Shown here: piece by piece, positions 3,266-50,420 of the stretch | Layout: every line of letters starts with the position of its first letter | Position numbering within the stretch: the first letter of the stretch is position 1 | Assembly: GCA_963665815.1 (NCBI GenBank) | Contig: OY762463.1 | Coordinates: 1,445,735 to 1,509,734, forward strand | Direction of reading: 5' to 3' | Source of the DNA: Candidatus Cloacimonadales bacterium | Lineage (GTDB): Bacteria; Cloacimonadota; Cloacimonadia; Cloacimonadales; JAIOQZ01 | Length of the DNA stretch: 64,000 bases | Translations under genes and position numbers: made by a program | Notes under the pieces: generated by a model | What the model saw: only the letters and a program-made list of their open reading frames with translations | The model's database searches: none | What the model was told of the DNA's origin: nothing

Positions 3266-3856
3266 ACTTTTCCTTTTTTCTTGATTTTAGTTATTTCGTT
3301 TTACTTGTCAAATTTTACAGTTTTGTTGTTAACTAATTCTTTGTACTATCTGCCTGCCTACGGAAAATACCAGTGTTTCATACTGTGCTCCTCACTTTTG
3401 GGTGTTATAAATCGCCTTTCTTGTTTTTAAAATTGAACTACCTTTTCGACTCTGCATACAATGTGCAAAACAGGTTTTTGTCGTCTTCTTTGTACAAAGA
3501 ATATTCCCTTTCCCGACTTTATCGGGACTCAGGGAGCTTTTATATTGATATTTACCAATAAGTTAAGTTGATTGAGCCCCGAAGAATCGGAAAAATTTAC
3601 TATACAATGATAAAGAAACATTATGCAGAAATTTCTTAATTAGAAGGGCATTTTAATAAGGTATCCGGTTTTGAAATTCACACACAAATGCTGTTAAGCT
3701 TTACCAATTCTAGATTATCGTGTATTTTCCACCCACACAACAAAATAACAATTTAATTTTAAAGAGGTTTCAGGAATTTGTCAATAAATAAGTTTGTGGA
3801 TTATGGGACTTTTGTCAGAATTGTCAAAGTATGTTGTTATAAGTGGTAAATAAAAA
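3266..3856. repeat. Modular intergenic repeat, copy 2 (modules A-B-unique-D-E-F)
   Basis: Module A (3266-3362) matches 5919-6016. B matches 1468-1550 and 6017-6100. D (3588-3659) matches 6355-6424. E-F matches 1640-1838. Confidence 0.9.
3284..3311 (-). promoter_or_regulatory. Sigma-70-type promoter for the 327-aa gene (inside repeat module A)
   Basis: Read on the minus strand: TTGACA (3311-3306), 16-nt spacer, TAAAAT (3289-3284), about 20 nt upstream of the ATG at 3265. The homologous position in copy 3 is also promoter-like. Confidence 0.55.
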
Positions 3857-35800: not shown

Positions 35801-36096
35801 CAATAGAAATCTATAAAAAAACATTGAATTCCTCTAAGAGATTCGATGCAGTATTGATGGACCTTACTGTTCCTGGTGGCATGTCCGGAAAAGAAGCTGT
35901 TCAGGAGATACTTAAAATTGACCCCAATGCGCAAGTTATTGTTATAAGTGGCTATTCCCGCGATCCTATATTAGCCAATTACAGCGACTACGGTTTTGTG
36001 GGCAAACTGGTTAAACCTTTCCAGATGCAGGAGATGAAAGAAGTTCTGAATAAAGTTATTAAGAAGGATGAAATGCATCAAAATCCCCAGTTGTAA
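32848..36096 (+). CDS. Hybrid sensor histidine kinase: periplasmic solute-binding domain, TM, multiple PAS, HisKA/HATPase, receiver
   Basis: SBP_bac_3-like N-terminus (VGQTNYPPFEF...IIGDEQIV). TM near aa 275-295. PAS-like repeats. H-box GGIAHDFNNILTAING. ATPase DSGGGISQENLEKIFDPYFTTK..GLGLAIV. Receiver ILIMDDNDDVR...LMDLTVPGGMSG...KP. Confidence 0.9.
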   Translation: MTLKKTIIISLFLILIVSLNCNISLTDEEKLFLSEKQEIVFVGQTNYPPFEFINENNMYDGMIIEQIRWISTELGFKAVFTHKSFSEAQADVLSGKADVISSFFYSEKRDEDFDFTETIYDVPAIIFVKKERTDIKDIADLNNKIIAIQKGDYAEEYLNSMNVQHRVLWTDDFEEALFSVIDGTADAIIGDEQIVLYEIYKQRLTDKIKTVGSPLYIGQDCMAVKEGNTILVDILKKGIKHSKDSGVYARIYQKWLGTSLNQQSDLWGKYANTIIYISLFIICVFIIAFIWIKKLKIEVHKRTVQLSTVNEELKREIEENSKVTEKLFENEMKFRNLSEQMMNGVAVVRNNRYIWVNSTFETVTGLSRDQLIDNEHRIFRFPKNRIDSDLVKWNDIVKHHEGKTFEAEVMTRDEKIYVDISMKTITFGKESAIQIIISDITARKNAELKLIDISDKNKALLDSIPDLMFVHDIDGKIIDFNSKGNTVLLLPERDVINTDLSDLPLSNETIELVIENIREALRTGETQTVRYSFSLNSNEMYYEAKISRLNDTQALSLVRDVTQTMELLEAVEKDREFLSVTLDSIGDAVIICDTNGNILLLNKVAEDLTGFYRSECEGSNLEEVFKVVNNKTGNTIISPVRKVLDTGKIQGVQDSSILISRTGRKYSISTNAAPIVTKDGNILGVVLVFRDETQKRRIEEEASKAQKLESIGILAGGIAHDFNNILTAINGNISLARLIEDEEKKGKYLSHAEKAVEQAKKLSMQLLTFSKGGDPIRETVSIKEIIEDSAGFVLRGSKVKCNLTFQEDLKPASLDKGQFSQVIQNIVLNANQAMPDGGSIDIKASNAILSDSNDYALAGGDYVKIEIRDSGGGISQENLEKIFDPYFTTKTDGHGLGLAIVYSIIKKHHGLITFESIVGHGTIVTILLPSADKKFERIDEEPDTTPDGKGHILIMDDNDDVRAIIGSSLNYLGYTYSEADDGLAAIEIYKKTLNSSKRFDAVLMDLTVPGGMSGKEAVQEILKIDPNAQVIVISGYSRDPILANYSDYGFVGKLVKPFQMQEMKEVLNKVIKKDEMHQNPQL

Positions 36097-36139
36097 AGAA
36101 ACGAAATATTGTGTCTCTACATTGGCGATGTGAAACATC

Positions 36140-37235
36140 TCTATTAATTCTCCTCCCATAGTGTTCTCGATCTATCGAGAATACCAGAAACAAGTGGAGG
36201 AGTACTCTGCTTGTGGTGGGAGGTAGTTTATATCACAATTTGATTATGTGTTACCTATGTCCCGTTTGCACACAAAATCATTGACACGACTAATCTAATT
36301 TATGAACTCATAAACATGAAACTATGGTATAATCCCGAACTTAAAGAAAAAGCAAAGATGTTGAGAAGTAATTCAACGTTGGCAGAAGTACTTTTCTGGA
36401 ACCAGTTAAGGGACAAGAAATTATGGTATGATTTTCACCGACAGAAACCAATCGACTATTATATTGTGGATTTCTATTGCCCGAAGTTGAATCTTATAAT
36501 CGAAATTGACGATTCCGATTACAAAGATTAAAACCTTGCGAATGGTTGATAAACCTTCGCAATGGTTGCCAAGTGAAGCAGAATCTCACCATTCGCATGG
36601 TCAAAAGACCATTGCGAGGGTGGAAGAAAAAATCTTGCGTTTTTACACAGTCTGTCAGTCTATTTTGTTACCTGTGTCACGTTTGTACAAATCATTGACA
36701 AGTGTGCAAATATGACAAGAATATAAACATGAAACTATGGTATAATCCCGAACTTAAATCTTATAATCGAAATTGATGATTCCGATTACAAAGATTAAGA
36801 CCTTGCGAATGGTTGATAAACCTTCGCAATGGTTGCCAAGTGAAGCAGAACCTCACCATTCGCAAGGTCAAAAGACCATTGCGAAGGTGGAAAAAAACCT
36901 TGCGTTTTTTACACAGTTTGTCTGTCTACTTTGTTACCTATGTCCTGGGTTTGAGCATTGTATTGATACACACCCCGTCCACCTTCGGTGTCCACCCCTC
37001 TTGATAGATGGGAGTTACGACGCTCATGCGTCGATTGGGATTTATGTAGTCCTTAAATCCTGTAGATCATGGTTCATAATATTTATTGAGACAACCGTCC
37101 GGTTGCCTCTTAGCGATTGGCAGAGCTGCTGAGTATATGAACACCGTAGAGAGGTAGCATGCAACGTCTAAGGTTAGGAGACACAAAATATTGTGTCTCT
37201 ACACAGCAGGTGATGCCTTACAGTTTTTGCAGACT
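36140..37235. repeat. Composite non-coding repeat locus 1 (block X, unit U1, deleted unit U2, block Y with two GAGACA/TGTCTC hairpins)
   Basis: Near-identical to 37432-38190 block by block. U units are bounded by GTTACC(T/C)RTGTC at 36250, 36668 and 36942. U2 (36668-36941) carries an internal deletion of the DUF559 fragment (ATG at 36729, junction GAACTTAAA|TCTTATAATCG). Confidence 0.9.
36316..36531 (+). pseudogene. Truncated DUF559/Vsr-like endonuclease fragment (N-terminal ~70 codons only)
   Basis: MKLWYNPELKEKAKMLRSNSTLAEVLFWNQLRDKKLWYDFHRQKPIDYYIVDFYCPKLNLIIEIDDSDYKD*. It stops just after the IE(I/L)D motif where full-length DUF559 proteins continue for ~45 aa. No SD. It is followed by a palindromic block. 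Confidence 0.6.
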
Positions 37236-37431
37236 ATGTAAAAACGATTTATGATATGAAATTACTTTTTTGACGCAGGTTTTCCCGATTCTTCGTGACT
37301 CAACCAGCTTAAGCTACTGATAAAGATAGAGATGTATGCTCCCTGAGCGGAGTCGAAGGGGATTAGTTTTAAGTGAATGAGACGACAAAAATCAATTGCT
37401 CCCTGAGATACAAAACATTGCATTGCTAAAA

Positions 37432-38190
37432 AAATTCTCCTCCCCGTAGTGTTTCGATTTACCGAGAATACCAGAAACAAGTGGAGGAGTACTCTGCTTG
37501 TGGTGGGAGGTAATTGATATCACAATTTGATTATGTGTTACCCATATCCTCGGTTTGTGCACAAAATCATTGACACGACTAATCTAATTTATGAACTCAT
37601 AAACATGAAACTATGGTATAATCCCGAACTTAAAGAAAAAGCAAAGGTGTTGAGAAGTAATTCAACGTTGGCAGAAGTACTTTTCTGGAATCAGTTAAGG
37701 GACAAGAAATTAGGGTATGATTTTCACCGACAGAAACCAATCGACTATTATATTGTGGATTTCTATTGCCCAAAGCTGAATCTTATAATTGAAATTGACG
37801 ATTCCGATTATAAAGATTAAAACCTTGCGAATGGTTGATAAACCTTCGCAATGGTTGCCAAGTGAAGCAGAATCTCACCATTCGCAAGGTCAAAAGACCA
37901 TTGCGAAGGTGGAAGAAAAAATCTTGCGTTTTTTACACAGTCTGTCAGTCTATTTTGTTACCCATGTCCTCGGTTGATACCGAGGCTTTTGCGTCGATTG
38001 GGGATCAGGAAATCCTTGAATCCTGTATATCATGGTTCATAATATTTATTGAGACAACCGTCCGGTTGTCTCTACGCGGTTGGCAGAGCTGCTGAGTATG
38101 TGAACACCGTAGAGAGGTAGCATGCAACGTCTGAGGTTAGGAGACACAAAATATTGTGTCTCTACACAGCAGGTGATGCCTTACAGTTCT
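37432..38190. repeat. Composite non-coding repeat locus 2 (block X, unit U3, block Y')
   Basis: Same order as locus 1. U3 spans 37537-37964. Hairpins at 38051-38072 (perfect 9-bp stem, GTCC loop) and 38141-38162. Confidence 0.9.
37605..37820 (+). pseudogene. Second copy of the truncated DUF559/Vsr-like fragment
   Basis: Same 71 codons as 36316..36531 with a few substitutions (M->V, W->G). The ORF-track start at 37527 is an upstream read-in. Confidence 0.6.
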
Positions 38191-38516
38191 TCCAGACAGC
38201 AGATTGCTGACAGACAACAAACGAAAATATTTTTATATCTTGAGTTCAATAATTAAGTTGACAAATATTCTTATAACTGTATTTATTTACATGGAAATAT
38301 GTTATTAGAAGCAACTCGATGTCGAGTACTCGACTTCTCCGTTTGGTTAAAGAAGATGACTATTGCATTTCTTGTAATTAACTTGAACATTCAATTGAGC
38401 CTTAAACCAATTAAAAATGAAGGAGTTTCTATGATGAACAATACAAAAAAAGTTGAAGCATTAACGAAGTCGAGTCGCTTGTAGTAATTAATAATTATAG
38501 AGAATGAGGTGTTTTA

Positions 38517-39734
38517 GTGAATCATCAGACAATTGAATCAGCAACTGAAAAGGCAAAACATATTTATATTGATGAATTTGGGAACAATGGATTTGATTTC
38601 GAAAAGCAAGGAGTATCAACGCATTTTATTCTAACTTCAATAATTGTAAATCCTGAGGATGTGGATGAGATTAGTCAATCTTCAGAAGAAATACGAGAAG
38701 GTCTACATCTTAAGGATGAACTGAAATTTAGTAGCTTTAAAAAGAAGTTTCACAATCAGCAAATTTTCAACGAAAAATTATTAGGCATATGTAATACTCT
38801 TAAACGGCTAAATCTGCAGATAATATGCTTTGTTTTTGACAAGAGAAAGATTTTTGAAGATTCTCCTATAAGGAACTATAAAAAAACGTTTTATAAGTTC
38901 TTGAACAGTAAATTGTATGATGAACTCTGGTCAAGGTTCCAGTCCTTGAGGATTGAAGCAGACGAGCATGGCTCTAGAGATTTCATGGATGAGTTTAAAA
39001 ACTATTTCCATAAAAAGTCTGGAATTTCACAAGATGATCTTTTTTGTCCTTATGAGTTTAGATTCAGGAATAGTATAGATAGTCCTTTAGTACAATTAGC
39101 TGATTTCGTTGCAGGTTTGTTTTCTATTGGATTTGATGAGAAAGCAAAGCTTGATATTTATGAAAGCTGTTTTGCTTTGATTGAAGAAAAAGTGATTACA
39201 ATTGAGGAATGGCCTTATAGTTATGAGAAACTTATTGATAAGAAAGTTAACTTATTAAATTCATCAGAAATTAACCGCACGATTTCTGTTGGAAGTATAC
39301 GAAAATGCAGGAACTATATTTCTGATAATATTGAAAGCAATGAAGAATACTGTGTTGAAAGAATGATTGTTCTGAAAAGATTGCTTTGGGAATTCAGAAA
39401 TAACATAAAAGCAAAATACTTAACATCCAGTGATCTAATCGAGTGTATCGCCGAACAGACAGGCAAAAGGTTCACAAAACATGAGTTTATGCATTATATT
39501 ATCGGTCATCTTAGGGATTCTGAAGTTATAATTTCTAGCAGCGAACAAGGATATAAAATTCCGACAAATGAAGCTGATATATATTCATATGTAAATAGAT
39601 CATTTAGTAATATTGATCCAATGATGAATAGACTAAAAGTTTGTAGGAAAGAAATCCTTAAGCTTACAGGTGGTGAATTAGATATACTTAGCCAAGAGAA
39701 ATTTGATAATATCAGAAGGTATCTTAATTTGTAG
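38517..39734 (+). CDS. DUF3800-like protein with a C-terminal winged-helix-like extension (405 aa)
   Basis: GTG start with GAGGTG 5 nt upstream. N-terminal HIYIDEFGN and distal VQLADFVAG resemble the two conserved DUF3800 motifs (from memory). The C-terminal ~120 aa (…YKIPTNEADIYSYV…) are unassigned. Confidence 0.55.
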   Translation: MNHQTIESATEKAKHIYIDEFGNNGFDFEKQGVSTHFILTSIIVNPEDVDEISQSSEEIREGLHLKDELKFSSFKKKFHNQQIFNEKLLGICNTLKRLNLQIICFVFDKRKIFEDSPIRNYKKTFYKFLNSKLYDELWSRFQSLRIEADEHGSRDFMDEFKNYFHKKSGISQDDLFCPYEFRFRNSIDSPLVQLADFVAGLFSIGFDEKAKLDIYESCFALIEEKVITIEEWPYSYEKLIDKKVNLLNSSEINRTISVGSIRKCRNYISDNIESNEEYCVERMIVLKRLLWEFRNNIKAKYLTSSDLIECIAEQTGKRFTKHEFMHYIIGHLRDSEVIISSSEQGYKIPTNEADIYSYVNRSFSNIDPMMNRLKVCRKEILKLTGGELDILSQEKFDNIRRYLNL

Positions 39735-39924
39735 ACTCAGCCTCAAGTTACCCTCGGCTAACATTCAGCCCTTGTCTCAAGCCAAAATACAGCCATAACA
39801 CACTTTATAATCACCATTGATTTATACCCCGAAAAAAGGTGCAAAAAAACTAATATTTAGCTTGACTTTAAAATCGACCCAAAAATATTGATATAAAAAT
39901 ATTGAATTGGAAGGAACTGAATTA

Positions 39925-40569
39925 ATGATGAATGATTCTGTTTCATTGTATACTATACGTCGTTTACCGTTATACCTTGAATTTTTAAAAGAACTCAAAG
40001 CAGCCGATGTGGAATTTACCTCGGCTTCAGAAATAGCACGCAATTTAAAAATATATCCTACTCAGGTCAGAAAAGACCTTACTATCGCAGGACTCACAGG
40101 AAAACCAAGAGTCGGTCACAAAGTTGACGAGTCAATCATTTTAATCGAAGAATTCTTAGGCTGGGATCACTCTCTCAATACTGTCGTGGTTGGAGCAGGT
40201 AATCTTGCCAGAGCGCTGCTGCGTTATCACGATATGAATGTGACAGGCTTAAGTATCAAGGCTCTTACAGATAACGATCCTGCTAAATTCGGAACTCACG
40301 TAAAAGGGCTCAAAGTCTATTCAAATGATGACCTCGCAAAAATCCGCGATGAATTTGATATTCAGGTGGGAATAATTGCTACTCCTGCATCCGAAGCACA
40401 GAATGCAGCGGATATGCTTATCGAAAACAAGATTACTACTCTGTGGAACTTCACTACCGTCCGCATCAAAGTGCCGGAAAATGTATTTGTGGAGCAGACT
40501 TGTCTGTACTGCAACATGGCAGTGGTGACCTACCATCATAACAAAAGAAATTTGATAGAATACAAATAA
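39925..40569 (+). CDS. rex: Redox-sensing transcriptional repressor Rex
   Basis: IRRLPLYLEFLKEL wHTH region plus Rossmann VVVGAGNLARALL. The size and its position upstream of hydrogenase genes are typical. Confidence 0.88.
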   Translation: MMNDSVSLYTIRRLPLYLEFLKELKAADVEFTSASEIARNLKIYPTQVRKDLTIAGLTGKPRVGHKVDESIILIEEFLGWDHSLNTVVVGAGNLARALLRYHDMNVTGLSIKALTDNDPAKFGTHVKGLKVYSNDDLAKIRDEFDIQVGIIATPASEAQNAADMLIENKITTLWNFTTVRIKVPENVFVEQTCLYCNMAVVTYHHNKRNLIEYK

Positions 40570-40602
40570 AAAAACAAAACCAAAATTATTTGGAGGAATT
40601 GG

Positions 40603-40965
40603 ATGAAAAAACTCGAAGAATTACGTAAGATCAGAGAAAAAGCTCAACAAAACATGGCTTTAAGAAACGCTGATCACCGTGTAAAGATTGTTGTTTCCAT
40701 GGGAACATCCGGAATCGCAATGGGTGCCCGTCAGGTAATGAAAGCATTCCTGGAAGCTATCCAGGCAAAAGGACTTACTGATGTTGTTGTAACACAGACA
40801 GGAGAAAAAGGAATTTCCTCAATGGAACCTGTAGTAGATGTATACGTAAAAGACATGCCTCAAGTCACATACGGATACATGAACCCTGAAAAAGTTGCTG
40901 AAGTAATGGAAAAACACATCATCGGTGGAGAAGTTGTAGCAGAATATGTTGCTGCAGCAGAATAA
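40603..40965 (+). CDS. Thioredoxin-like [2Fe-2S]-ferredoxin-fold protein lacking all cluster cysteines (possible HydD-like accessory subunit)
   Basis: The fold pattern of the NuoE/HydB N-terminal domain is retained (KIVVSMGTSGIAMGARQV...VTQTGEKGISSMEPVVDV...Y), but the protein contains no cysteine. Confidence 0.6.
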   Translation: MKKLEELRKIREKAQQNMALRNADHRVKIVVSMGTSGIAMGARQVMKAFLEAIQAKGLTDVVVTQTGEKGISSMEPVVDVYVKDMPQVTYGYMNPEKVAEVMEKHIIGGEVVAEYVAAAE

Positions 40966-40998
40966 GAAGGAACTCAAAAAATAATATAAGGAGAAATT

Positions 40999-41454
40999 AT
41001 GTACGATAAGATTTTCGAAAAGTACGAAGCTGTAAAATCTAATCTGATTTACATCCTGCATGATATCCAGGATCAGCATCCTCAGCATTATATTTCAGAA
41101 GAAGCTGTTGCCGCTGTATCTAACTATCTCAATGTACCGGAAAGTCACATTTTCGGTGTTCTTACATTCTACACAATGTACTCAACAAAACCAAGAGGAA
41201 AGAACATTATCCGTTTATGTGAATCTCCTCCATGCTGGCTTAAAGGTTCAGACGCTGTTCACAAAACACTCAAAGATTATCTTGGAGTAAAAACAGGCGA
41301 AACAACTCAAGACGGTGAATTCACTCTTGAACTTTGCGCATGCCTCGGTGTTTGCGGTAACGCTCCTGTAATGATGGTGAACGAAGATGTTTACGGTGAC
41401 CTTACTCCTGACAGAGTTAAAAAGATCATCGATGAAATCAGAGGAGGCGAATAA
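40999..41454 (+). CDS. hydC: NuoE-like [2Fe-2S] subunit of NAD(P)H-linked [FeFe]-hydrogenase (HydC-type)
   Basis: RLCESPPCWLKGSDAV...LELCACLGVCGNAPVMMVNED (4-Cys NuoE pattern). Confidence 0.85.
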   Translation: MYDKIFEKYEAVKSNLIYILHDIQDQHPQHYISEEAVAAVSNYLNVPESHIFGVLTFYTMYSTKPRGKNIIRLCESPPCWLKGSDAVHKTLKDYLGVKTGETTQDGEFTLELCACLGVCGNAPVMMVNEDVYGDLTPDRVKKIIDEIRGGE

Positions 41455-43016
41455 TGAAAACTACACGCACTCACATTTTATTCGGTATGGACGATGCTAG
41501 TATTGCTGCAGGAACAAGTGCTGTTCAAGCTGCAATCAAAGCTGAAATAGAAAAAAACGGTCTTCAGGAAGAAGTAGAAGTACTTGAAACCGGTTCACTT
41601 AATTTCTTCGATAAAGGCGTGAACTGTGTTGTTTATCCTGACAACGTTACATATATTAACCTCAAATTAGAAGATGCTGAAGAACTCGTAAGAGAGCACT
41701 TTGTAAAAGGTCGTCCTGTAAAAAGACTCCTTATGACAGCTCCTGAAAAAGTTCAGATTGACATGAACTACGACACAAGAATCGTTCTCAAAAATTCAGG
41801 TATTATTGATCCTGAAAACATTGAAGAATATCTTGGAGCAGGCGGTTACATTGCATGGGAAAAAGCACTTCTTAATATGAAGCCAATGGCTATCATTGAT
41901 GAAGTTAAGAAATCAGGTCTGAGAGGACGTGGTGGAGCCGGATTCCCTGCGGGACTCAAATGGAGTTTCACAGCACCAATCGAAGCTGAACAAAAATTAT
42001 TTGTTATCAATGCTGACGAAGGTGAACCGGGAACTTTCAAAGATCGTCTTATTATGGAAGGTGATCCTCATAAACTTCTTGAAGGTATTATGATCGGATC
42101 ATATGCTGTTGGCGCAACCAAAGCTTACATATATATTCGCGGTGAATACAAATTATGTATAAACCGTTTGAATAAAGCGATCGAGCAGGCTCGCGAATAT
42201 GGCCTCCTTGGAGAAAATATCTTCGAATCAGGATTTAATCTTGACATAGAAGTGATGATTGGCGCAGGTGCTTATGTATGCGGTGAAGAAACTGCATTGA
42301 TTGAATCTATGGAAGGAAATCGTGGAAACCCACGTTCCAAGCCACCTTTCCCAGGCGTTAAAGGTGCTTGGCAAAAGCCTACAGTTGTCAACAACGTGGA
42401 AACTATAGCTAATGTTCCTGCGATCATTAACAATGGCGGCGAGTGGTATGCTAAACTCGGAACCGAAAAATCAACCGGTACAAAAGTATACACCATACTC
42501 GGTGATGTTGAAATGCCAGGTCTTACAGAAGTAGAAATGGGTACACCATTACGTAAGATCATCAACGAGTACGGCGGTGGAATGAAAGACGGCAAGAAAT
42601 TCAAAGCCGCTCTTATCGGTGGTAGTGCAGGCGTTATCCTTAACGAAGACCTTGTTAACGTTAAGATGGACTATGAAAGTCTTGGAGACAACGCAGCTGT
42701 TCTTGGTTCCGGAGCTATTCTTGTAATGAATGAAGATGTTCCAATGGTAGAAATGCTTGCATCTATTATTCATTTCTTCGAGCATGAGTCATGCGGTAAA
42801 TGTCGTCCATGTGCACTCGGTACAAAACAGCTCGAAAAACTGATCAAGAAAGTTCAGAAAGGTGAAGCTACAGTTGAAGATTTAGACTACATGATTACTC
42901 TTTCAGAGATAATGCAGCAGTCTTCCTTCTGTGCATTAGGTCAATCATTAATCATGCCGGTAAAAAGCGCTATTGAGAACTTCCGGGATGAATTTTTAGC
43001 AAGAATTGAAAAATAG
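41454..43016 (+). CDS. hydB: NuoF-like flavoprotein subunit (HydB-type) with a degenerate N-terminal Trx-like domain and no C-terminal 2x[4Fe-4S] domain
   Basis: GLRGRGGAGFPAGLKW (FMN/NADH site). ESCGKCRPCALGT...SFCALGQ (N3-type cluster). The N-terminal ~95 aa are Trx-like but have only one Cys. The protein ends 35 aa after the last N3 ligand. Confidence 0.85.
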   Translation: MKTTRTHILFGMDDASIAAGTSAVQAAIKAEIEKNGLQEEVEVLETGSLNFFDKGVNCVVYPDNVTYINLKLEDAEELVREHFVKGRPVKRLLMTAPEKVQIDMNYDTRIVLKNSGIIDPENIEEYLGAGGYIAWEKALLNMKPMAIIDEVKKSGLRGRGGAGFPAGLKWSFTAPIEAEQKLFVINADEGEPGTFKDRLIMEGDPHKLLEGIMIGSYAVGATKAYIYIRGEYKLCINRLNKAIEQAREYGLLGENIFESGFNLDIEVMIGAGAYVCGEETALIESMEGNRGNPRSKPPFPGVKGAWQKPTVVNNVETIANVPAIINNGGEWYAKLGTEKSTGTKVYTILGDVEMPGLTEVEMGTPLRKIINEYGGGMKDGKKFKAALIGGSAGVILNEDLVNVKMDYESLGDNAAVLGSGAILVMNEDVPMVEMLASIIHFFEHESCGKCRPCALGTKQLEKLIKKVQKGEATVEDLDYMITLSEIMQQSSFCALGQSLIMPVKSAIENFRDEFLARIEK

Positions 43017-43032
43017 TAAACGGAGGTTATAA

Positions 43033-44826
43033 ATGAGTAATGTTAAACTTATGATTAACAACATTGAGGTAGAAGTACCTCAAGGTACAACGTTAATCCA
43101 GGCTGCGAAGAAAGCAGGTTACAAGGTTCCTACATTATGTTACCACCCAGACTGGAAACCGACTTCAGCATGTGGTGTTTGTATTGTAGATATCGAAGGC
43201 TCTCCAGTCCCAAAAAGAGCTTGTTCAACAGAAGTTTGGGAAGGAATGAAAGTAACCACAAACAGCAAAAAACTCCGTGAAGCAAGAAAAACTCTCATTG
43301 AACTTATACTTGCAAATCACGATGTTACATGTCCTACATGTGTTGCGAATGGTAAATGTGAATTACAGGAAATCGCTTATACATTAGATATCGATCCTGA
43401 AGCTGTTCCTAGCATGCTTAAAAAAGTTCCTGTTGATCATTCTTCAGTTTCCATAATCAGAGACGTAAACAAATGTATCAACTGTGGACGCTGTGTTCAG
43501 GTTTGTTCAGATGGTCAGACAGTTAATGCACTGACATTCTCAAATCGTGGATTCGAAACAAAAATCGATACAGCTTTAAGCCTTGGTATGGCTAACTCTG
43601 TATGTGTTAATTGTGGTCAGTGTACAGTATACTGCCCAACAGGCGCATTACATGAAAAAGACGATACAGCAAAAGTATGGGATGCTCTTCTTGATCCTAC
43701 AAAACACGTTGTAGTACAGGAAGCTCCATCTATCCGTGCATCACTCGGTGAAGAATTCGGAATGGAATTTGGTGAAGTAAATATTGGTAAAATGTATGCA
43801 GCACTTAAGAGACTTGGTTTCGACGGTGTATTCGATACAAACTTTACTGCTGACCTTACAATCATCGAAGAAGGTTCAGAAGTTGTTGATCGTGTTGTTA
43901 ATGGTGGTCCATTACCATGTATAACATCATGTTCACCAGGCTGGGTAAAATTCATGGAAACATTCTTCCCTGATCTTGCACACCATGTATCAACTGCAAA
44001 GTCACCTCAGCAAATGATGGGTACTCTTGCAAAAACATACTATGCTGAACAAAAAAGTATTGATGCAAAAGATATAGTATCTGTATCAATCATGCCTTGT
44101 ACAGCTAAGAAATTCGAAGCTCAAAGAGATGAAATGTCTGATTCTAAATATCAAGACGTAGATTACGTTCTTACAACAAGAGAATTAATCAGAATGATTC
44201 ACGAAGCAGGTATGGATTTCAAAAACCTTCCTGAAGAAGAACCATATTATGAACTTTCACATCACACTGGTGCCGGAACTATTTTTGGTGCTACAGGTGG
44301 TGTTATGGAAGCTGCACTGCGTTCAGTATACTGGCTGGTAAATAAAAAAGACCTTGGTGATGTAGAAATAACACCTGTTCGTGGTCTTAAAGGTATCAAA
44401 GAAGCTGAAGTTGCTCTCACACCAGACCTTACTGTTAAAGTTGCAGTTGCTCACGGACTTGGAAATGCAAGAAAACTCATGGAAAAAGTTCAAAAGCAAA
44501 TCAAAGAAACAGGTAAGAGCGAATATACATTCATCGAAATCATGGCTTGCCCTGGTGGATGTGTTGGCGGTGGTGGACAACCATTCGGTAACTCAATGGC
44601 TGACCGTGCACGCCGTGGAGAAAGACTGTATGAAGATGATAGAAATCTTCCTGCAAGATGCTCACACCATAACGAAGCTGTAATGGGACTCTATGGCGAA
44701 GGTAACTTCCTTCCTGAAGGTCCTGGTGGTCATAAAGCTCACCATCTGCTTCATACTCACTATTACTCAAGAGAAAAATTCAAGGGTCAAATAGTTGAGC
44801 AAGTTACAGGTAAAGATCATCACTAA
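43033..44826 (+). CDS. hydA: [FeFe]-hydrogenase catalytic subunit (multi-cluster, group A3-like architecture)
   Basis: N-terminal 2Fe-2S (CYHPDWKPTSACGVCIV). HDVTCPTCVANGKC. Two ferredoxin motifs (CINCGRCVQVC, CVNCGQCTVYCPTGA). H-cluster motifs TSCSPGW, MPCTAKKFE, EIMACPGGCVGGGGQP. Confidence 0.92.
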   Translation: MSNVKLMINNIEVEVPQGTTLIQAAKKAGYKVPTLCYHPDWKPTSACGVCIVDIEGSPVPKRACSTEVWEGMKVTTNSKKLREARKTLIELILANHDVTCPTCVANGKCELQEIAYTLDIDPEAVPSMLKKVPVDHSSVSIIRDVNKCINCGRCVQVCSDGQTVNALTFSNRGFETKIDTALSLGMANSVCVNCGQCTVYCPTGALHEKDDTAKVWDALLDPTKHVVVQEAPSIRASLGEEFGMEFGEVNIGKMYAALKRLGFDGVFDTNFTADLTIIEEGSEVVDRVVNGGPLPCITSCSPGWVKFMETFFPDLAHHVSTAKSPQQMMGTLAKTYYAEQKSIDAKDIVSVSIMPCTAKKFEAQRDEMSDSKYQDVDYVLTTRELIRMIHEAGMDFKNLPEEEPYYELSHHTGAGTIFGATGGVMEAALRSVYWLVNKKDLGDVEITPVRGLKGIKEAEVALTPDLTVKVAVAHGLGNARKLMEKVQKQIKETGKSEYTFIEIMACPGGCVGGGGQPFGNSMADRARRGERLYEDDRNLPARCSHHNEAVMGLYGEGNFLPEGPGGHKAHHLLHTHYYSREKFKGQIVEQVTGKDHH

Positions 44827-44880
44827 ATAAAAATTTTGCGAAGGACAAAATTTAATATTAAAAATTTATATAATTAAATG

Positions 44881-45022
44881 TTGTCTGACTGTAATAATTT
44901 AGTATAATATAGAAAAAGAATTTATTACTATCCTGAGATGAAGGAGTAAATCTAACATTCAGGGATGGGGAGATAGATACTATTATAACCTCCGTGTCCC
45001 TGTGTGGACCGGAGGTTTTTTC
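44881..45022 (+). promoter_or_regulatory. Promoter plus ~105-nt structured leader ending in an intrinsic terminator directly in front of the maturation operon
   Basis: TTGTCT (44881-86), 16-nt spacer, TATAAT (44903-08). Hairpin ATCCTGA(44930-36)/TCAGGGAT(44959-66). Terminator AACCTCCGtGTCC(44987-99)/GGACCGGAGGTT(45006-17) + T6. The GGAGG in its 3' arm is the SD for the GTG at 45023. Confidence 0.55.
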
Positions 45023-45271
45023 GTGAAAAGAATACATAATATTTCTATAACAGTTTATGAACGTGAAACAGCGTACAAACAGGTAAATACTATTTTACAC
45101 GACTACGCAGAGGAACTTTTACTGCGTGTGGGGTATCCGGTTAAAGACCGTGATATAGCAATTATTTTTCTCGTTGCAGAAATGACAACTGACGAACTCG
45201 GAGCACTGACAGGAAAATTGGGTCAGATTAAATCCGTGAAAGTCAAATCAACAACTTTAAAAACAAATTAA
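45023..45271 (+). CDS. TM1266-family small ACT/NikR-C-like protein (putative iron-only hydrogenase system regulator)
   Basis: ~82 aa: IHNISITVYERETAYKQVNTILHDYAEELLLRVGYPVKDRDIAIIFLVAEMTTDELGALTGKLGQIKSVKVK. Position immediately upstream of hydG. I chose the GTG start at 45023 (SD GGAGG). Confidence 0.6.
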   Translation: MKRIHNISITVYERETAYKQVNTILHDYAEELLLRVGYPVKDRDIAIIFLVAEMTTDELGALTGKLGQIKSVKVKSTTLKTN

Positions 45272-45287
45272 AAATACAGAGGTAATT

Positions 45288-46694
45288 ATGGTACTTGACA
45301 CAACAGGTCTTAAATCATTCATCCCGAATGACAAAATCTTTGAGGATCTTGCAAAAGCAAAGAATCCTGACAGATTACAAATCAAGGATATTATCCAGAA
45401 ATCACTGGATAAAAACCGTCTTGATCCATTTGAAATGGCATGTCTGATAAACGCTACCGACGAAGATCTTGTAGAAGAAATAAAACAGGGAGCACGTACA
45501 CTTAAAGAAAGAGTATACGGCAACAGAATCGTCCTTTTTGCTCCTCTTTATGTTGGAAACGACTGTATTAATGACTGTGTATACTGCGGATTCAGATCTT
45601 CAAATACTGAAGCTGAAAGAAACACTCTCACCATGCAGAAACTCGGTATGGAAGTTGAATCACTGGTGGATAATGGACACAAACGACTGATCATGGTATA
45701 CGGTGAACACCCTAAGTACGATGCTCAATTCATTCATGACACAGTAATGAAAGTCTATGCTACTAAGAAAGGAAACGGGGAAATCCGTCGCGTTAATATC
45801 AACGCAGCTCCACTTGATGTAGAAGGCTACAAAATTGTTAAAAAAGCCGGAATTGGTACTTACCAGATTTTCCAGGAAACATACCACGAAGAAACTTACA
45901 AACAAGTTCACCCTCGCGGACCTAAGAGCAACTATCTGTGGAGACTTCACGGTCTGGACAGAGCTATGGAAGCAGGAATTGATGATCTTGGAATCGGTGC
46001 TCTCATGGGCTTGTATGACTGGCGTTTTGAAGTAATGGGACTGCTTTATCACACAATGCACCTTGAAGAACGCTTTAACATTGGACCTCATACCATTTCA
46101 TTCCCAAGAATTGAACCTGCTTTTAATACCGATTTCACCAAACGACCACCTCATCTTGTATCAGATGATGACTTCAAAAAACTGGTTGCTATTCTTCGAC
46201 TTGCGGTTCCATACACCGGACTGATTCTCACTGCTCGTGAGCCGATTGACATCCGTAATGAAGTAATCAATTATGGTGTATCCCAAATAGATGCAGGATC
46301 AGCTATCGGTATTGGAGATTACTCTTCAGAAGACCATACCAACAAGAAAGAGCAGTTCACACTATCAGATTCCAGAACACTTGATGAAGTAATCAAAGAA
46401 CTTGCAGACCATAACTTTATTCCTAGTTTCTGCACAGGTTGTTACAGGCTTGGACGTACAGGTGAACACTTCATGGAATTTGCCATTCCGGGATTCGTTA
46501 AACGATATTGCTCTCCTAATGCAATCCTTACATTCCTCGAATATGTTGAAGACTATGCTACTCCTGAATCAAGAGCTTCAGGAATCAAACTTATTGAAAG
46601 AGAACTTGAAAAGCTTGAAGACAGCAAAATGAAAGCTGAAGTTGAAAGCAGAATCCAGAGGATTAAAAACGGTGAAAGAGACTTATACTTCTAA
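45288..46694 (+). CDS. hydG: [FeFe]-hydrogenase maturase HydG (radical SAM tyrosine lyase)
   Basis: CINDCVYCGF rSAM motif. ThiH-like core. C-terminal auxiliary-cluster motif CTGCYRLGRTGEHFM. Operon context. Confidence 0.88.
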   Translation: MVLDTTGLKSFIPNDKIFEDLAKAKNPDRLQIKDIIQKSLDKNRLDPFEMACLINATDEDLVEEIKQGARTLKERVYGNRIVLFAPLYVGNDCINDCVYCGFRSSNTEAERNTLTMQKLGMEVESLVDNGHKRLIMVYGEHPKYDAQFIHDTVMKVYATKKGNGEIRRVNINAAPLDVEGYKIVKKAGIGTYQIFQETYHEETYKQVHPRGPKSNYLWRLHGLDRAMEAGIDDLGIGALMGLYDWRFEVMGLLYHTMHLEERFNIGPHTISFPRIEPAFNTDFTKRPPHLVSDDDFKKLVAILRLAVPYTGLILTAREPIDIRNEVINYGVSQIDAGSAIGIGDYSSEDHTNKKEQFTLSDSRTLDEVIKELADHNFIPSFCTGCYRLGRTGEHFMEFAIPGFVKRYCSPNAILTFLEYVEDYATPESRASGIKLIERELEKLEDSKMKAEVESRIQRIKNGERDLYF

Positions 46695-48096
46695 AGAGAT
46701 AAGAACACAAAAAATGGATGATAGCGAAGTCCCGGCAAACTCAATGTACGGATCGCAGACCTGTAGAGCATTGGATAACTTTGGGGTATCTCCAGAGAAG
46801 ATGTACACTATGTTCATCAAGGCTTTTGCTTATGTGAAACAGGCCTGTGTCAGAACAAACAGTCTGCTTGGCTATATGAATCAGGAAAAAGCTGATCTGA
46901 TAGAAGCAGTTTGCAAAGAGATCATTGCGGGAGAACATCATGATGAATTTGTTGTCTCTCCTTTCCAGGGTGGAGCAGGAACTTCGACTAACATGAACTT
47001 CAATGAGGTTATAGCGAACTTAGCCAATGCGAAAGCTGGGCAAGCTAAAGGAGAATTCAGTTATATACATCCTCTGAAAGATGTTAATATGCATCAGTCA
47101 ACGAACGATGTTTATCCTACATCACTGAAAGTCGCAATACTCCTGTATCTTAAAGAGTTGGAAAAGAGCATAACCTTTTTACAGGAAGCCTTGCAGGAGA
47201 AAGAGCGTGAGTTTCAGAATGTTGTTAAGACCGGCAGAACCCAACTCCAGGATGCAGTTCCCTTGACTCTTGGAATGGAGTTCAGTGCATATTCAGATGC
47301 AATAGCCCGTGACAGGTGGCGTATCTTTAAATCGAGAGAAAGAATTAAAGTTGTGAATCTTGGTGGGACAGCTATTGGAACCGGACTTGGAGCACCACGA
47401 AAATACATCTTCAAAGTTACTGAAGTGTTGAGAAGACTTACTGGACTTAATCTTGCCAGAGGTGAAAATCTGGTTGATGCAACCCAGAATGTCGATGCTT
47501 TTGCAGAAGTTTCCGGAATGCTCAAGGCTTTTGCGGCAAACCTGTTCAAGATTGCGAATGACCTTCGACTGCTGAGCAGTGGACCTCAGGGAGGACTTGG
47601 AGAAATTAATCTACCCAAAGTGCAGAAGGGATCAACAATCATGCCGACAAAGGTAAATCCGGTAATTCCGGAGTTTGTTGCTCAATCAGCCCTGCAGGTA
47701 ATGGGAAATGATGCAGTTATAACTCAGGTAACTGCACTGGGAAATCTTGAGCTGAACCAGTTTCTGCCACTGCTTACACATAACATCATGCAGTCGCTGG
47801 AGCTGCTGAATACTGCTTCTATCAAATTCAGAACGCATTGTATTGACGGTATTACAGCCAATGAAGAAGTATGCAGGCAAAAATTGTATAATTCTCCTAT
47901 AATTGCAACTGTTCTTGTCCCGGTTCTTGGATACGATAAAGTGGAAGAAATTGTAACGGAAGCAGGTAAGAATAAACAATCAATAAGCGAATATCTAACA
48001 GAAAACAAGATAATCAGTGAAGAAAAAATCCAGGAGATTCTGTCTCCTACAAAAATGTACAAATTAGGATATACGGATGATGAATTACGATTTTAA
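46672..48096 (+). CDS. Aspartate ammonia-lyase/fumarase-superfamily protein embedded in the hyd maturation operon
   Basis: EVPANSMYGSQTCRALDNF, TNMNFNEVIAN, QSTNDVYPT, signature GSTIMPTKVNP. The start is uncertain (GTG 46672 preferred; TTG 46642 or ATG 46714 possible). It overlaps the hydG stop and the hydE start. Confidence 0.8.
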   Translation: MKETYTSKEIRTQKMDDSEVPANSMYGSQTCRALDNFGVSPEKMYTMFIKAFAYVKQACVRTNSLLGYMNQEKADLIEAVCKEIIAGEHHDEFVVSPFQGGAGTSTNMNFNEVIANLANAKAGQAKGEFSYIHPLKDVNMHQSTNDVYPTSLKVAILLYLKELEKSITFLQEALQEKEREFQNVVKTGRTQLQDAVPLTLGMEFSAYSDAIARDRWRIFKSRERIKVVNLGGTAIGTGLGAPRKYIFKVTEVLRRLTGLNLARGENLVDATQNVDAFAEVSGMLKAFAANLFKIANDLRLLSSGPQGGLGEINLPKVQKGSTIMPTKVNPVIPEFVAQSALQVMGNDAVITQVTALGNLELNQFLPLLTHNIMQSLELLNTASIKFRTHCIDGITANEEVCRQKLYNSPIIATVLVPVLGYDKVEEIVTEAGKNKQSISEYLTENKIISEEKIQEILSPTKMYKLGYTDDELRF

Positions 48097-49156
48097 AAAT
48101 CTATCAAAACAACAAATGATCGAGGTTTTTCAATCCGAAGATCAAGCTCTTATAGAGGAGCTTTACAGGCAGGCTTATGCTGTAAAAGAACAGCATGTAG
48201 GCAAGAAAGTATATTTCAGAGGAATAATCGAGCTTAGTAATATCTGCGATAAGGACTGTTTTTATTGCGGTATCAGGAAAAGCAACAGCAAAGTAAACAG
48301 ATATTTCATGAAGAAAGAAGAGATCCTGGAAGCAGCAGAATGGTCCTGGAAGATGAATTACGGGTCAGTAGTGCTGCAGTCCGGAGAACGTTGTGACAAA
48401 GAGTTTGTAGACTATATTGAAGACCTTCTGATCAACATCAAAAAGCTGTCCAATCAGGAGCTGGGAATCACACTTTCTCTGGGTGAACAATCAAAAGAAA
48501 CCTACAGAAGATGGTTCGAAGCCGGTGCAACAAGATACCTGCTGAGAATTGAGTCCAGCAATGAAGAACTGTACAAAAGTTTGCATCCTGCAACACACGA
48601 TCATACAGAGAGACTTAGATGTCTGGAATACTTGCGTGAAACGGGTTATCAGGTTGGAACAGGAGTAATGATCGGACTGCCTAATCAGACTTACGAAGAT
48701 CTGGTTAACGACATCATGTTCTTCAAGGAACACGATATTGATATGATTGGAATGGGACCTTATGTTGTGCATCAGGATACTCCTTTGGCGAATTCAATGC
48801 CTGATTATGACAAGAAAATTCAGCTTGGAAAAGCTCTGAAGATGATCTCCTTGACTCGTATGTTCCTGAAGGATGTCAATATTGCCTCCACAACAGCTTT
48901 GCAGGCACTTGATCCGCTAGGAAGAGAGTATGGGCTCAAAGCCGGGGCGAATATTATCATGCCCGTTCTTACAGATACTAAATACAGAGAAAAGTACCTT
49001 TTATATAATGACAAACCATGTGTTGATGAAAATGCAACCATGTGCAGAGCATGTCTGGAGAACAGAATTGAATCTGTTGGTGAAACAATAGGCTATGGGG
49101 AACTTGGTGATTCTCCTCACTTTAAGGCAAGGAGTAAAGATGCCGGCAATACCTAA
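48077..49156 (+). CDS. hydE: [FeFe]-hydrogenase maturase HydE (radical SAM)
   Basis: CDKDCFYCGIRKSN rSAM motif. BioB-like fold, length 359 aa. Context. Confidence 0.85.
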   Translation: MMNYDFKNLSKQQMIEVFQSEDQALIEELYRQAYAVKEQHVGKKVYFRGIIELSNICDKDCFYCGIRKSNSKVNRYFMKKEEILEAAEWSWKMNYGSVVLQSGERCDKEFVDYIEDLLINIKKLSNQELGITLSLGEQSKETYRRWFEAGATRYLLRIESSNEELYKSLHPATHDHTERLRCLEYLRETGYQVGTGVMIGLPNQTYEDLVNDIMFFKEHDIDMIGMGPYVVHQDTPLANSMPDYDKKIQLGKALKMISLTRMFLKDVNIASTTALQALDPLGREYGLKAGANIIMPVLTDTKYREKYLLYNDKPCVDENATMCRACLENRIESVGETIGYGELGDSPHFKARSKDAGNT

Positions 49157-50339
49157 AGGTGAACGTTGTAACATTGCTATCATTGGTAAACGTAACGCAG
49201 GGAAATCTTCTCTGATAAACGCCATGACAAGTCAGGATATATCTATTGTATCCAATACTCCCGGAACAACAACTGATCCGGTTAAGAAGAATTATGAGCT
49301 GCTGCCCATTGGACCGGTTTCTATAATTGATACAGCAGGGATAGATGACCTTGGTGAGCTTGGGGAGAAGCGTGTGAAGTCAACACGTAAAGTACTCTGG
49401 CGAACAGATATTGCTCTTGTTGTAACAGATGAACACGGAATAACCGATGATGTAAAAGCAATCATTGAGGAAGTGCAAAATCTTAACATAACCACAATGG
49501 TTGTGTTTAACAAGAATGATATTGCAGATGTAGACAAGTCTAATAAAGACTACTGTAGATCACTTGGTTTGCCTTATATCTCAGTTTCCAGTATATCAGG
49601 AAAAAACATCCGAGATTTGAAAGAAAAAATGGCTGATCTGGTTCCGACGGAGTTTCTTGCTGAACGAGTTCTTGTCGGTGATCTGGTTAACCCCGGGGAT
49701 CAGGTTGTGCTGGTTGTTCCCATTGACTTAGCTGCCCCTAAAGGCAGACTGATAATGCCGCAGGTTCAGGTATTGAGAGAAATCCTTGATAACGATGCAA
49801 TAGGTATTATGGTTAAAGAACGTGAGCTGGAAGACTCTCTCATGAAGCTGAAAGATCCACCAGACTTGATTATTACTGACTCTCAGGTGATCCTTAAGGT
49901 TGACGGAGATGTACCGGAAGAGATTCCTCTGACAACATTCTCAACGCTTTTTGCACGCTATAAAGGAGAACTTAACATGCTTGTTGATGGTGCATCTGCA
50001 ATTGATAAGCTGGAAGACGGAGACAAGGTTGTTATAGCTGAATCCTGTTCCCATCATGTTCAGGCTGATGATATTGGTAGAGTCAAGATTCCCCGGTGGT
50101 TGAGACAGTATACCGGTAAGGATATTAAGTTTGATGTATACTCAGGTCATGATTTCCCGGATAATCTGGAGGAGTATAAGCTTGTGCTTCATTGTGGTGC
50201 ATGTATGACAAACAGAATGGAGATGATCCGCCGTATGCGCGAGTGTAACCGTCGAGGTGTCCCAATAACCAATTACGGAGTTGCAATATCCAAGCTCCAT
50301 GGAGTACTGGATAGAGTAATCAAACCATTTTATAAATAG
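49140..50339 (+). CDS. hydF: [FeFe]-hydrogenase maturation GTPase HydF
   Basis: P-loop IIGKRNAGKSSLINAM, DTAG, NKND. C-terminal cluster ligands CSHH...HCGAC. I chose the ATG at 49140 (AAGGAG 5 nt upstream); it overlaps the hydE stop. Confidence 0.88.
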   Translation: MPAIPKGERCNIAIIGKRNAGKSSLINAMTSQDISIVSNTPGTTTDPVKKNYELLPIGPVSIIDTAGIDDLGELGEKRVKSTRKVLWRTDIALVVTDEHGITDDVKAIIEEVQNLNITTMVVFNKNDIADVDKSNKDYCRSLGLPYISVSSISGKNIRDLKEKMADLVPTEFLAERVLVGDLVNPGDQVVLVVPIDLAAPKGRLIMPQVQVLREILDNDAIGIMVKERELEDSLMKLKDPPDLIITDSQVILKVDGDVPEEIPLTTFSTLFARYKGELNMLVDGASAIDKLEDGDKVVIAESCSHHVQADDIGRVKIPRWLRQYTGKDIKFDVYSGHDFPDNLEEYKLVLHCGACMTNRMEMIRRMRECNRRGVPITNYGVAISKLHGVLDRVIKPFYK

Positions 50340-50350
50340 ATATAGTATGG

Positions 50351-50376
50351 AAACCTGTCGGCAATGGCAGGTTTTC
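50351..50376 (+). terminator. Intrinsic terminator after hydF
   Basis: AAACCTG (10-nt loop) CAGGTTT + TTCG. Confidence 0.55.
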
Positions 50377-50384
50377 GTTACACA

Positions 50385-50420
50385 ATAAAAAAAACCAGCC
50401 CTCTGAATGAAGGCTGGTTT
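50385..50420 (-). terminator. Bidirectional intrinsic terminator (serves the convergent 1852-aa gene)
   Basis: AACCAGCC (11-nt loop) GGCTGGTT, flanked by an A9 run upstream and TTTAATTTTT downstream. Confidence 0.75.

Follow-up and report, generated by a model that had tools for sequence, protein, structure and literature searches.

What kind of DNA fills the densely structured interval behind a kinase gene in the Candidatus Cloacimonadales bacterium assembly GCA_963665815.1? The interval lies in the window analysed here, a 64-kb stretch of contig OY762463.1 whose coordinates are used throughout. It comprises a composite region of ~ 2.1 kb (36097–38200) in which two loci, assembled from blocks called X, U and Y, stand between the kinase stop codon and a gene for a DUF3800 protein. 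A preliminary description of this sequence had proposed either a non-autonomous palindromic element family mobilised in trans or a family of structured RNAs. Our results favour a different answer. The region is probably a locally duplicated nest of decaying selfish DNA, made up of a DUF559 nuclease cassette and repetitive extragenic palindromic (REP) hairpins, which sits in a 3.6-kb strain-specific insertion at a synteny breakpoint and was rearranged via short direct repeats. In all likelihood, the composite represents neither a new family of elements nor one of structured RNAs, but a further example of selfish DNA of kinds already known.

The repeat architecture is real and far beyond chance. 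Self-BLAST and a repeat finder both showed the same blocks in the same order at the two loci, as had been described. Segment 36146–36678 of locus 1 aligned with 37433–37968 of locus 2 at 95.2% identity over 537 nt, and the two plus-strand copies of block Y (37018–37234 and 37981–38197) aligned at 91.2% identity over 217 nt. The 3′ part of the unit is present once more in a shorter version (36747–36944), which was 92–93% identical to both 36480–36678 and 37779–37975. Each U unit is bounded by a ~ 22-nt direct repeat, TGTTACCYRTRTCCTSGGTT, whose first copy occupies 36247–36268 on the plus strand and whose further copies start at 36664, 36930, 37534 and 37954. Its core GTTACCYRTRTC, which contains the GTTACC motif previously taken as the unit boundary, occurred five times in the 64 kb (36250, 36667, 36933, 37537 and 37957), always inside the repeat region. 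The additional U copy noticed in locus 1 was confirmed together with its internal deletion. This second tandem copy, U′ (36666–36932, plus strand, with its own palindromic block at 36800–36888), lacks 146 nt between the imperfect 12-nt direct repeats CCCGAACTTAAA (36334) and CCCGAAGTTGAA (36480), which results in a frameshift. The statement that the copies differ only at scattered positions did not hold, since locus 1 has 61 nt more than locus 2, including a discrete 48-nt repeat unit at 36968–37015. We also observed that this C-run/G-run unit is cleanly absent from locus 2, where the flanks close into the perfect hairpin CCTCGGTTGATACCGAGG (37968–37985, plus strand), followed by CTTTTG. This pattern suggests insertion or excision of the 48-nt unit as a whole.

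Apart from a truncated DUF559 open reading frame (ORF), the region is non-coding, as had been stated. The ORF has 71 codons and lies on the plus strand at 36316–36531 (copy 1) and 37605–37820 (copy 2). It corresponds to the N-terminal part of DUF559, a Vsr-like PD-(D/E)xK endonuclease, which agrees with its first assignment: the match to Pfam DUF559 (PF04480, E = 1.5e-16) covered profile positions 3–64 of 109 only. In a hidden Markov model (HMM) of 83 full-length relatives, the stub took up positions 1–72 of 121 (E ~ 1e-35; 4e-35 for copy 1). The stub falls short of a complete DUF559 domain of ~ 110 residues, the C-terminal 40% being gone. Weak colinear traces of HMM positions 78–95 were detected in other frames just 3′ of the palindromic block, at 37882–37935 and at 36605–36643 (positions 82–94, …KILRF…), with independent E-values of 0.7–1.9 that are individually not significant. 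The gene also ends prematurely in a TAA and is without the Ser-His, and ~ 60 nt of its coding sequence are replaced by the palindromic block. Among the ~ 100 matches listed, nearly all relatives of the stub have 115–125 aa, and the closest ones (118–125 aa) are 65–70% identical to it. Because nearly all relatives are of this length, we consider the window ORF a truncated gene.

It might be proposed that the 71-aa fragment is a functional small protein, e.g. a DNA-binding or regulatory remnant, with two copies under selection and the palindromic block acting as a terminator or operator. The ORF is indeed intact in both copies, synonymous changes make up five of the seven substitutions between them, and it has diverged by 3.2%, compared with 8.8% for block Y. 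Seven substitutions, however, have no statistical power, and six of them are transitions, among them every one of the five synonymous changes. The fragment is without the conserved His and the entire C-terminal half of the domain, the third copy (in U′) is frameshifted, and short DUF559 forms of ≤ 85 aa are rare (4 of the ~ 100 matches listed). A retained protein function is thus unlikely in our view.

The DNA around intact relatives of the stub, comprising 22 reference-genome loci and six loci around its closest relatives (P0002, P0003 and P0008), revealed a recurrent arrangement. Intact DUF559 genes encoding 118–125 aa were bracketed by ~ 50-nt C-run/G-run double-hairpin repeats, the downstream copy being inverted. 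Of the 25 loci examined, 16 had such hairpin repeats on both flanks of the gene, and the hosts of the bracketed genes were Bacteroidota, Ignavibacteria, Kapaibacteria, Gammaproteobacteria, Patescibacteria and a Nanoarchaeota metagenome-assembled genome (MAG). The upstream (forward) repeat has the form AATCCCCTCT-loop-AGAGGGGTGGC-(short hairpin)-GACGGGGTGTGT. The flank-repeat stem was 93% paired over ten sequences, with one compensatory pair.

Block X of the window resembles these flank repeats. Its copies (36146–36228 and 37433–37515, plus strand) have a CTCCTCC/GGAGGAG stem, and copy 1 carries a 36-nt hairpin-forming insert in the first loop. Block X aligned with the flank repeats of seven loci (L001, L003, L004, L006, L007, L029 and L067), sharing with this family the 5′ AATTCTCCTCC and the complementary GGAGGAG. 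Moreover, its G-rich tail contains GCTTGTGG and is very similar to the tail in L001, and the CTCCTCC/GGAGGAG variant was also present in the low-GC Kapaibacterium copy (L003). Block X is, to judge from its sequence, an AT-drifted member of the C-run/G-run flank-repeat family. Cassettes of this type have a flank repeat of the form AATYCCCTCY-loop-RGAGGGG…GACGGGGTG upstream of the gene and an inverted copy downstream; in the window, block X takes the upstream position, and the inverted copy is present in locus 1 only. That inverted copy is the 48-nt unit at 36968–37015 (minus strand), a canonical GC-rich DUF559-flank repeat like the downstream repeats of L029 and L006. With block X on one side and this unit on the other, locus 1 therefore shows the standard layout of forward repeat, DUF559 gene and inverted repeat, with the gene broken. 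The stub, which had been regarded as possible cargo, is better understood as a remnant of the cassette's own gene, as intact genes with X-type flanks occur in many genomes. The preliminary description had itself named intact DUF559 genes with the same flanks elsewhere as the outcome that would reduce the region to a decaying duplicated pseudogene, and this is largely what we found.

Literature searches on the repeat sequences and on DUF559 genes with repeats revealed no published name or prior account of such a cassette. Assignment of the X-type repeats to the published CGTC REPs was considered and rejected: CGTC, a short stem and a CCA-like tail are present, but the stems have 4–5 bp, whereas the published families have stems of 8–9 bp that start with A-T pairs. 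We also observed that in three loci (L001 5173–7002, L003 1947–3122 and L004 684–3542) the DUF559 gene and its repeats lie in frame inside long ORFs of the N6-adenine methyltransferase/type IIG-like kind. These insertions are stop-free throughout, and the repeats are translated as …NSPPLEGCPKDGVV… and …TPAPPKEGN…. The insertion site is the same in L001 and L003 and different in L004.

The second component of the region is the set of hairpins in block Y, which we found at the positions given for them earlier. Stems of 9 bp with 4-nt loops were perfect at 37178–37199, 38051–38072 and 38141–38162. Each of these hairpins extends to a GTAG tag on the minus strand (full units 37178–37202, 38051–38075 and 38141–38165). 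The remaining hairpin of copy 1 (37088–37112, tag on the minus strand) is decayed, having one mismatch in its stem (37088–37109) and a degraded GTAG tag at 37112. The degenerate copy next to the kinase stop was confirmed as well. It is a GTAG-type REP hairpin on the minus strand (36097–36121) whose first base directly follows the TAA (36094–36096). It reads GTAGAGACACAATATTTCGTTTCT on that strand and is 92% identical to 37179–37203 and 38142–38166. The minus-strand tag GTAGAGACA… was thus found at 38075, 38165, 37202 and 36121. As reported previously, GTAG-tagged REPs and their REP-associated tyrosine transposases (RAYTs) form REPtrons (PMC2817692; PMC3733652). In one REP survey, ‘GTAGAG’ had 0 occurrences and the stem GTAGAGACA was not found. 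Two other origins of block Y were rejected: its similarity to the kinase 3′ end is limited to the 25-nt hairpin copy in self-BLAST, and as a coding remnant it contains no convincing ORF.

A metagenome scan for two GAGACA-N10-TGTCTC hairpins 48–78 nt apart returned 117 loci (0.67 Mb), with 12 occurrences of the exact core GAGACACAAAATATTGTGTCTC. Outside the search pattern, GTA preceded 159 of the 292 hairpins and TAC followed 131 of them; the REP unit is therefore a 28-nt palindrome, GTAGAGACA-N10-TGTCTCTAC. The inner 10-mers occurred in 99 versions, of which 50 keep all three outer pairs (~ 1.6% expected by chance), in 18 pair combinations. The hairpins are a genuine, widespread REP family. 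Y1_Tnp was the commonest Pfam family among the 144 ORFs beside them, and all-against-all BLAST delineated a family of 190–250-aa proteins characterised by the HUH motif MPNHxHGI and, C-terminally, by the Tyr motif YIxNNP. With queries stripped of the hairpin-encoded peptide, such RAYT-like genes were found in 26 of the 117 loci. The sole NCBIfam match of their products was NF047646, “REP-associated tyrosine transposase” (E = 1e-16 to 1e-18), with scores of 58–67 bits that lie under the equivalog cut-off of 80. Hairpins flank the RAYT-like genes on both sides and also occur in frame inside them, encoding VETRHALSL repeats. Such an organisation is known from the REPtrons of GTAG-tagged REPs (PMC3733652). 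We noted one to five such in-frame GTAG hairpins between the HUH and the catalytic Tyr region (e.g. L064 4241–4864); RAYT-like genes with both in-frame and flanking hairpins were present in L061, L064, L081, L103, L105, L112, L117, L118 and L119.

These data bear directly on the proposal that X-U-Y is a non-autonomous REP/PATE-like composite element, moved in trans by a Y1 enzyme (RAYT or IS200/IS605 TnpA) encoded elsewhere, with the two loci as separate insertions. The part of this idea that concerns the hairpins is supported by their GTAG tag and by the association of their family with RAYT-like genes in other genomes. It would also account for the left edge of the duplicated segment, which coincides exactly with the 5′ end of X, for the partial REP copy at the left border beside the kinase stop, and for the unrelated DNA that separates the loci. 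The part that concerns X, U and Y as one family is not supported. In the 0.67 Mb of hairpin-bearing metagenomic loci only the 25–35-nt hairpin recurred, and neither the rest of Y nor X, U, the palindromic block or the spacer between the loci was found there. X belongs to a different, DUF559-bracketing repeat family, and a single system of X-type repeats and GTAG hairpins was rejected, the two having met in only 3 of the 117 loci. One of these three (L067 6820–6991) has two X-type repeats (CCCCTCC…GGAGGGGTGCCGTCTTCGGTGGGGTG) interleaved with GTAG hairpins (GTAGAGACAGGGCATGCCCTGTCTC).

The distribution of the hairpins near the region argues in the same direction. The remaining ~ 62 kb of the window contained neither GTAG hairpins nor X motifs, and 72 kb of sequence from close relatives had none either, so the hairpins are not the high-copy interspersed family expected of REPs, at least over this span. 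As the preliminary description had it, no mobilising enzyme is in sight: there is no transposase ORF in 36097–38516, as an insertion sequence would have, and no RAYT is encoded in the 64 kb. Among the metagenomic loci, the AT-rich hairpin subtype of the window was never seen beside a RAYT. No target duplication was seen at the X or Y borders, and the ~ 22-nt direct repeat is internal; the region does not qualify as an insertion sequence or a miniature inverted-repeat transposable element. We give little credence to a composite element moved as a whole. The more general statement that the region derives from mobile or selfish DNA has nonetheless proved right.

A further part of U is the palindromic block that follows the stub. 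It lies on the plus strand at 36533–36621 (copy 1, followed by the possible remnant of the DUF559 C-terminus) and 37822–37910 (copy 3), besides the copy in U′. The block is built of four 14-mers arranged as A-B-rc(A)-rc(B), where rc denotes the reverse complement, and the complementarity is perfect in two of the three copies. Although the perfect complements are in non-nested order, the block folds as two adjacent hairpins, with z = −4.5. The block may have arisen by insertion of a small dimer of palindromic repeats or by template switching. A search of the viral collection and of the 1.02 Mb of fetched loci gave no copy of either the block or the ~ 22-nt GTTACC repeat.

Strong folding raises the alternative that the blocks are structured RNAs, either a new DUF3800-associated motif upstream of the DUF3800 gene or a cis-regulatory or terminator element derived from the palindromic block. 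As reported by Weinberg (2017), DUF3800 genes are accompanied by eleven unrelated RNA motifs (DUF3800-I to XI), which can lie on either side of the gene and point in either direction (PMC5737381). The window shares with them structured non-coding DNA beside a DUF3800 gene, copy 2 of Y being 320 nt upstream of it. All blocks fold better than shuffled sequence, with z = −3.2/−3.6 for the two strands of Y and −3.1 for X (copy 2), in addition to the value of the palindromic block. Palindromic DNA repeats, however, fold with low energy on both strands whatever their function. The copies of the blocks are 91–95% identical. Homologues were found neither for the palindromic block nor for Y outside the hairpins; the decayed hairpin at 37088–37109 and the mismatches in the palindrome of the first U carry no compensatory repair. 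Rfam gave nothing at the gathering score in the window. At E up to 1–5, the region and the DNA flanking the DUF3800 gene on either side yielded only chance-level matches, and no covariance model fitted, including those of the DUF3800 motifs, retron msr/msd-type RNAs and group II introns. Neither tRNAs nor tmRNAs were detected with ARAGORN, and a promoter and terminator scan showed no enrichment. We regard an RNA function as very improbable, and the family of structured RNAs suggested earlier is left without evidence.

The DUF3800 gene itself speaks against a partnership with the blocks. It encodes 405 aa (38517–39734, plus strand; Pfam PF12686, E = 6e-12) and has a GC content of ~ 31%, compared with ~ 37% for the window. 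Three distinct homologues of its product (28–38% identical) were located in five loci (L150, L151 and L152–L154), all of which are defence islands with TIR_2, WYL, DUF1016, SMODS+SLATT, ScoMcrA-SBD/McrB-like, Eco57I and HpaII restriction-modification genes as neighbours. In all five, the upstream gaps were short and contained no X, U or Y. The DUF3800 protein was consequently rejected as a mobilising enzyme or as the partner of a Y RNA, its homologues residing in defence islands without any of the blocks. PADLOC had no model matching the window protein and PHROGs returned nothing useful. Phage and plasmid collections gave no match at blastn sensitivity, and among viral contigs neither the double hairpin nor the palindromic block nor the DUF3800 protein had a counterpart.

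Comparison with close relatives placed the whole region in strain-specific DNA. Two relatives carry kinase orthologues with 79% amino-acid identity, and in one of them (L023) the kinase is followed after 165 nt by a gene matching the window from position 50390 onward. The hydrogenase operon on the other side (39741–50391) is 93–97% identical to that of L025 and L026, and in both the homology stops exactly at 39741. Because L023 joins the kinase to the homologue of 50390 and the homology of L025 and L026 ends at 39741, the interval 36097–39740 is specific to the source genome. These 3.6 kb hold the repeats and a single intact gene, that of the DUF3800 protein, and are absent from close relatives. 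We also observed that the 3′ end of the kinase is a synteny breakpoint, at which relatives place different genes (loci compared: L023, L024, L025 and L026). The [FeFe]-hydrogenase/Rex operon shows the 93–97% identity given above, as opposed to ~ 82% on the kinase side, and on another contig of the relative GCA_942492065.1 it adjoins a prophage end. At 39744–39757, 6 nt inside the right junction of the strain-specific segment, the sequence AAGTTACCCTCGG resembles the U-boundary repeat TGTTACCCATGTCCTCGG. This likeness of the junction motif GTTACCCTCGG may be a coincidence. In the 64 kb, only 13 copies of GTTACCY lie outside the repeat region.

The following order of events would explain the anatomy. 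Imported DNA would have brought in the DUF559 cassette and the REP hairpins. Of the cassette, block X would be the left repeat, the gene would have lost its C-terminal 40%, and the canonical right repeat would have been kept in locus 1 only. The second component would be the three to four GTAG REP hairpins of the GTAGAGACA-N10-TGTCTCTAC family. Unequal recombination between the ~ 22-nt direct repeats could have generated the U/U′ tandem, and a larger segmental duplication would have copied X-U-Y. The 146 nt of U′ were presumably lost by deletion between the 12-nt repeats, and one 48-nt flank-repeat unit would later have been gained or lost. At present the sequence most likely serves no function, and the DUF559 nuclease presumably once worked for the spread of its own cassette. 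The anatomy, the homologies and the absence from relatives are direct observations; the order of events is inferred.

Several observations weigh against this reconstruction. The two loci are separated by a 198-nt spacer (37235–37432) that lies outside the duplication, and the event was therefore not a plain tandem duplication. Divergence is unequal, with 4.8% in the X-U part and 8.8% in Y. The A-B-A′-B′ symmetry of the palindromic block and its strong fold are not predicted by simple decay. The excess of synonymous changes in the stub ORF (5 of 7) could mean ongoing selection, with numbers too small for a firm statement. We must also note that the searches for further copies, for a RAYT and for an intact DUF559 gene covered the 64-kb window of a 3.96-Mb source genome. 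As a separate matter, the spacer contains a small repeat (37280–37347) that is ~ 76% identical to 3528–3595 and unrelated to the other blocks. This small repeat family, …GCTCCCTGAG-hairpin-AAGGG…, occurs both in the spacer and in a distant intergenic region of the window, with GCTCCCTGAG motifs at 37338, 37398 and 51586 and, in reverse orientation, at 3528.

The present analysis is mainly a clarification. An eye-catching structured region of 2 kb is best read as a duplicated nest of a pseudogene and REPs in what is probably imported DNA, and it is therefore not to be pursued as a new element or a new RNA. The DUF559 cassettes and the in-frame REPs are more interesting than the composite itself. 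One lead is that small DUF559 genes are consistently bracketed by a single conserved double-hairpin repeat across distant phyla, sometimes in frame in restriction-modification genes. The other is a REP family, GTAGAGACA-N10-TGTCTCTAC, whose RAYT-like genes carry their own REP in frame. Both bear on how REP-like repeats spread without a known transposase, a question raised as open for REPs of the CGTC type (PMC3733652). It is conceivable, although on balance doubtful, that the C-run/G-run repeats and the ~ 120-aa DUF559 gene constitute a REPtron-like selfish unit, in which a PD-(D/E)xK nuclease instead of a Y1 transposase would promote spreading or homing into its own palindromic repeats. Such a unit would have crossed at least six phyla and could use in-frame sites in host genes; the window would then contain a dead duplicated copy, with the palindromic block and the ~ 22-nt repeats as scars. 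Separately, we noted that in a gammaproteobacterial MAG a RAYT-like gene (L006 671–1165) precedes the DUF559 cassette by ~ 5 kb.

Among known systems, the hairpins of block Y are closest to the GTAG REPs of RAYTs and to REPINs (PMC2817692; PMC3733652). They agree in the palindromes of 22–28 nt, whose stem carries a GTAG tag at its base, in the arrangement as spaced dimers just downstream of a gene, and in that their family flanks RAYT-like HUH/Y1 genes in other genomes. They differ in number and location, with three to four copies only, all within 2.1 kb. Moreover, the window is without a RAYT, and the RAYT-like proteins of the family score below the NCBIfam cut-off. The packing of several kinds of short palindromic repeats into an intergenic region by a convergent or unidirectional gene end, with local duplications, is also seen in bacterial interspersed mosaic elements (BIMEs). 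Unlike BIMEs, the cluster in the window includes a nuclease-cassette pseudogene and belongs to strain-specific, probably imported DNA, not to a genome-wide family. The DUF559 cassettes in methyltransferase ORFs and the GTAG hairpins in RAYT ORFs recall Rickettsia palindromic elements (RPEs) and intragenic REPs in being in frame, whereas the copies in the window are intergenic. Finally, according to a survey of PD-(D/E)xK nucleases, Vsr and DUF559 share a clade with a group I intron homing endonuclease (PMC3424549). Like free-standing homing-endonuclease-like or selfish nuclease cassettes, the DUF559 cassette is small, patchily distributed across phyla and bracketed by palindromic repeats. In contrast to homing endonucleases, the DUF559 cassettes are known here from sequence, with no empty or filled target site identified. 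The window copy is truncated and decaying, as expected late in the life cycle of a selfish element.

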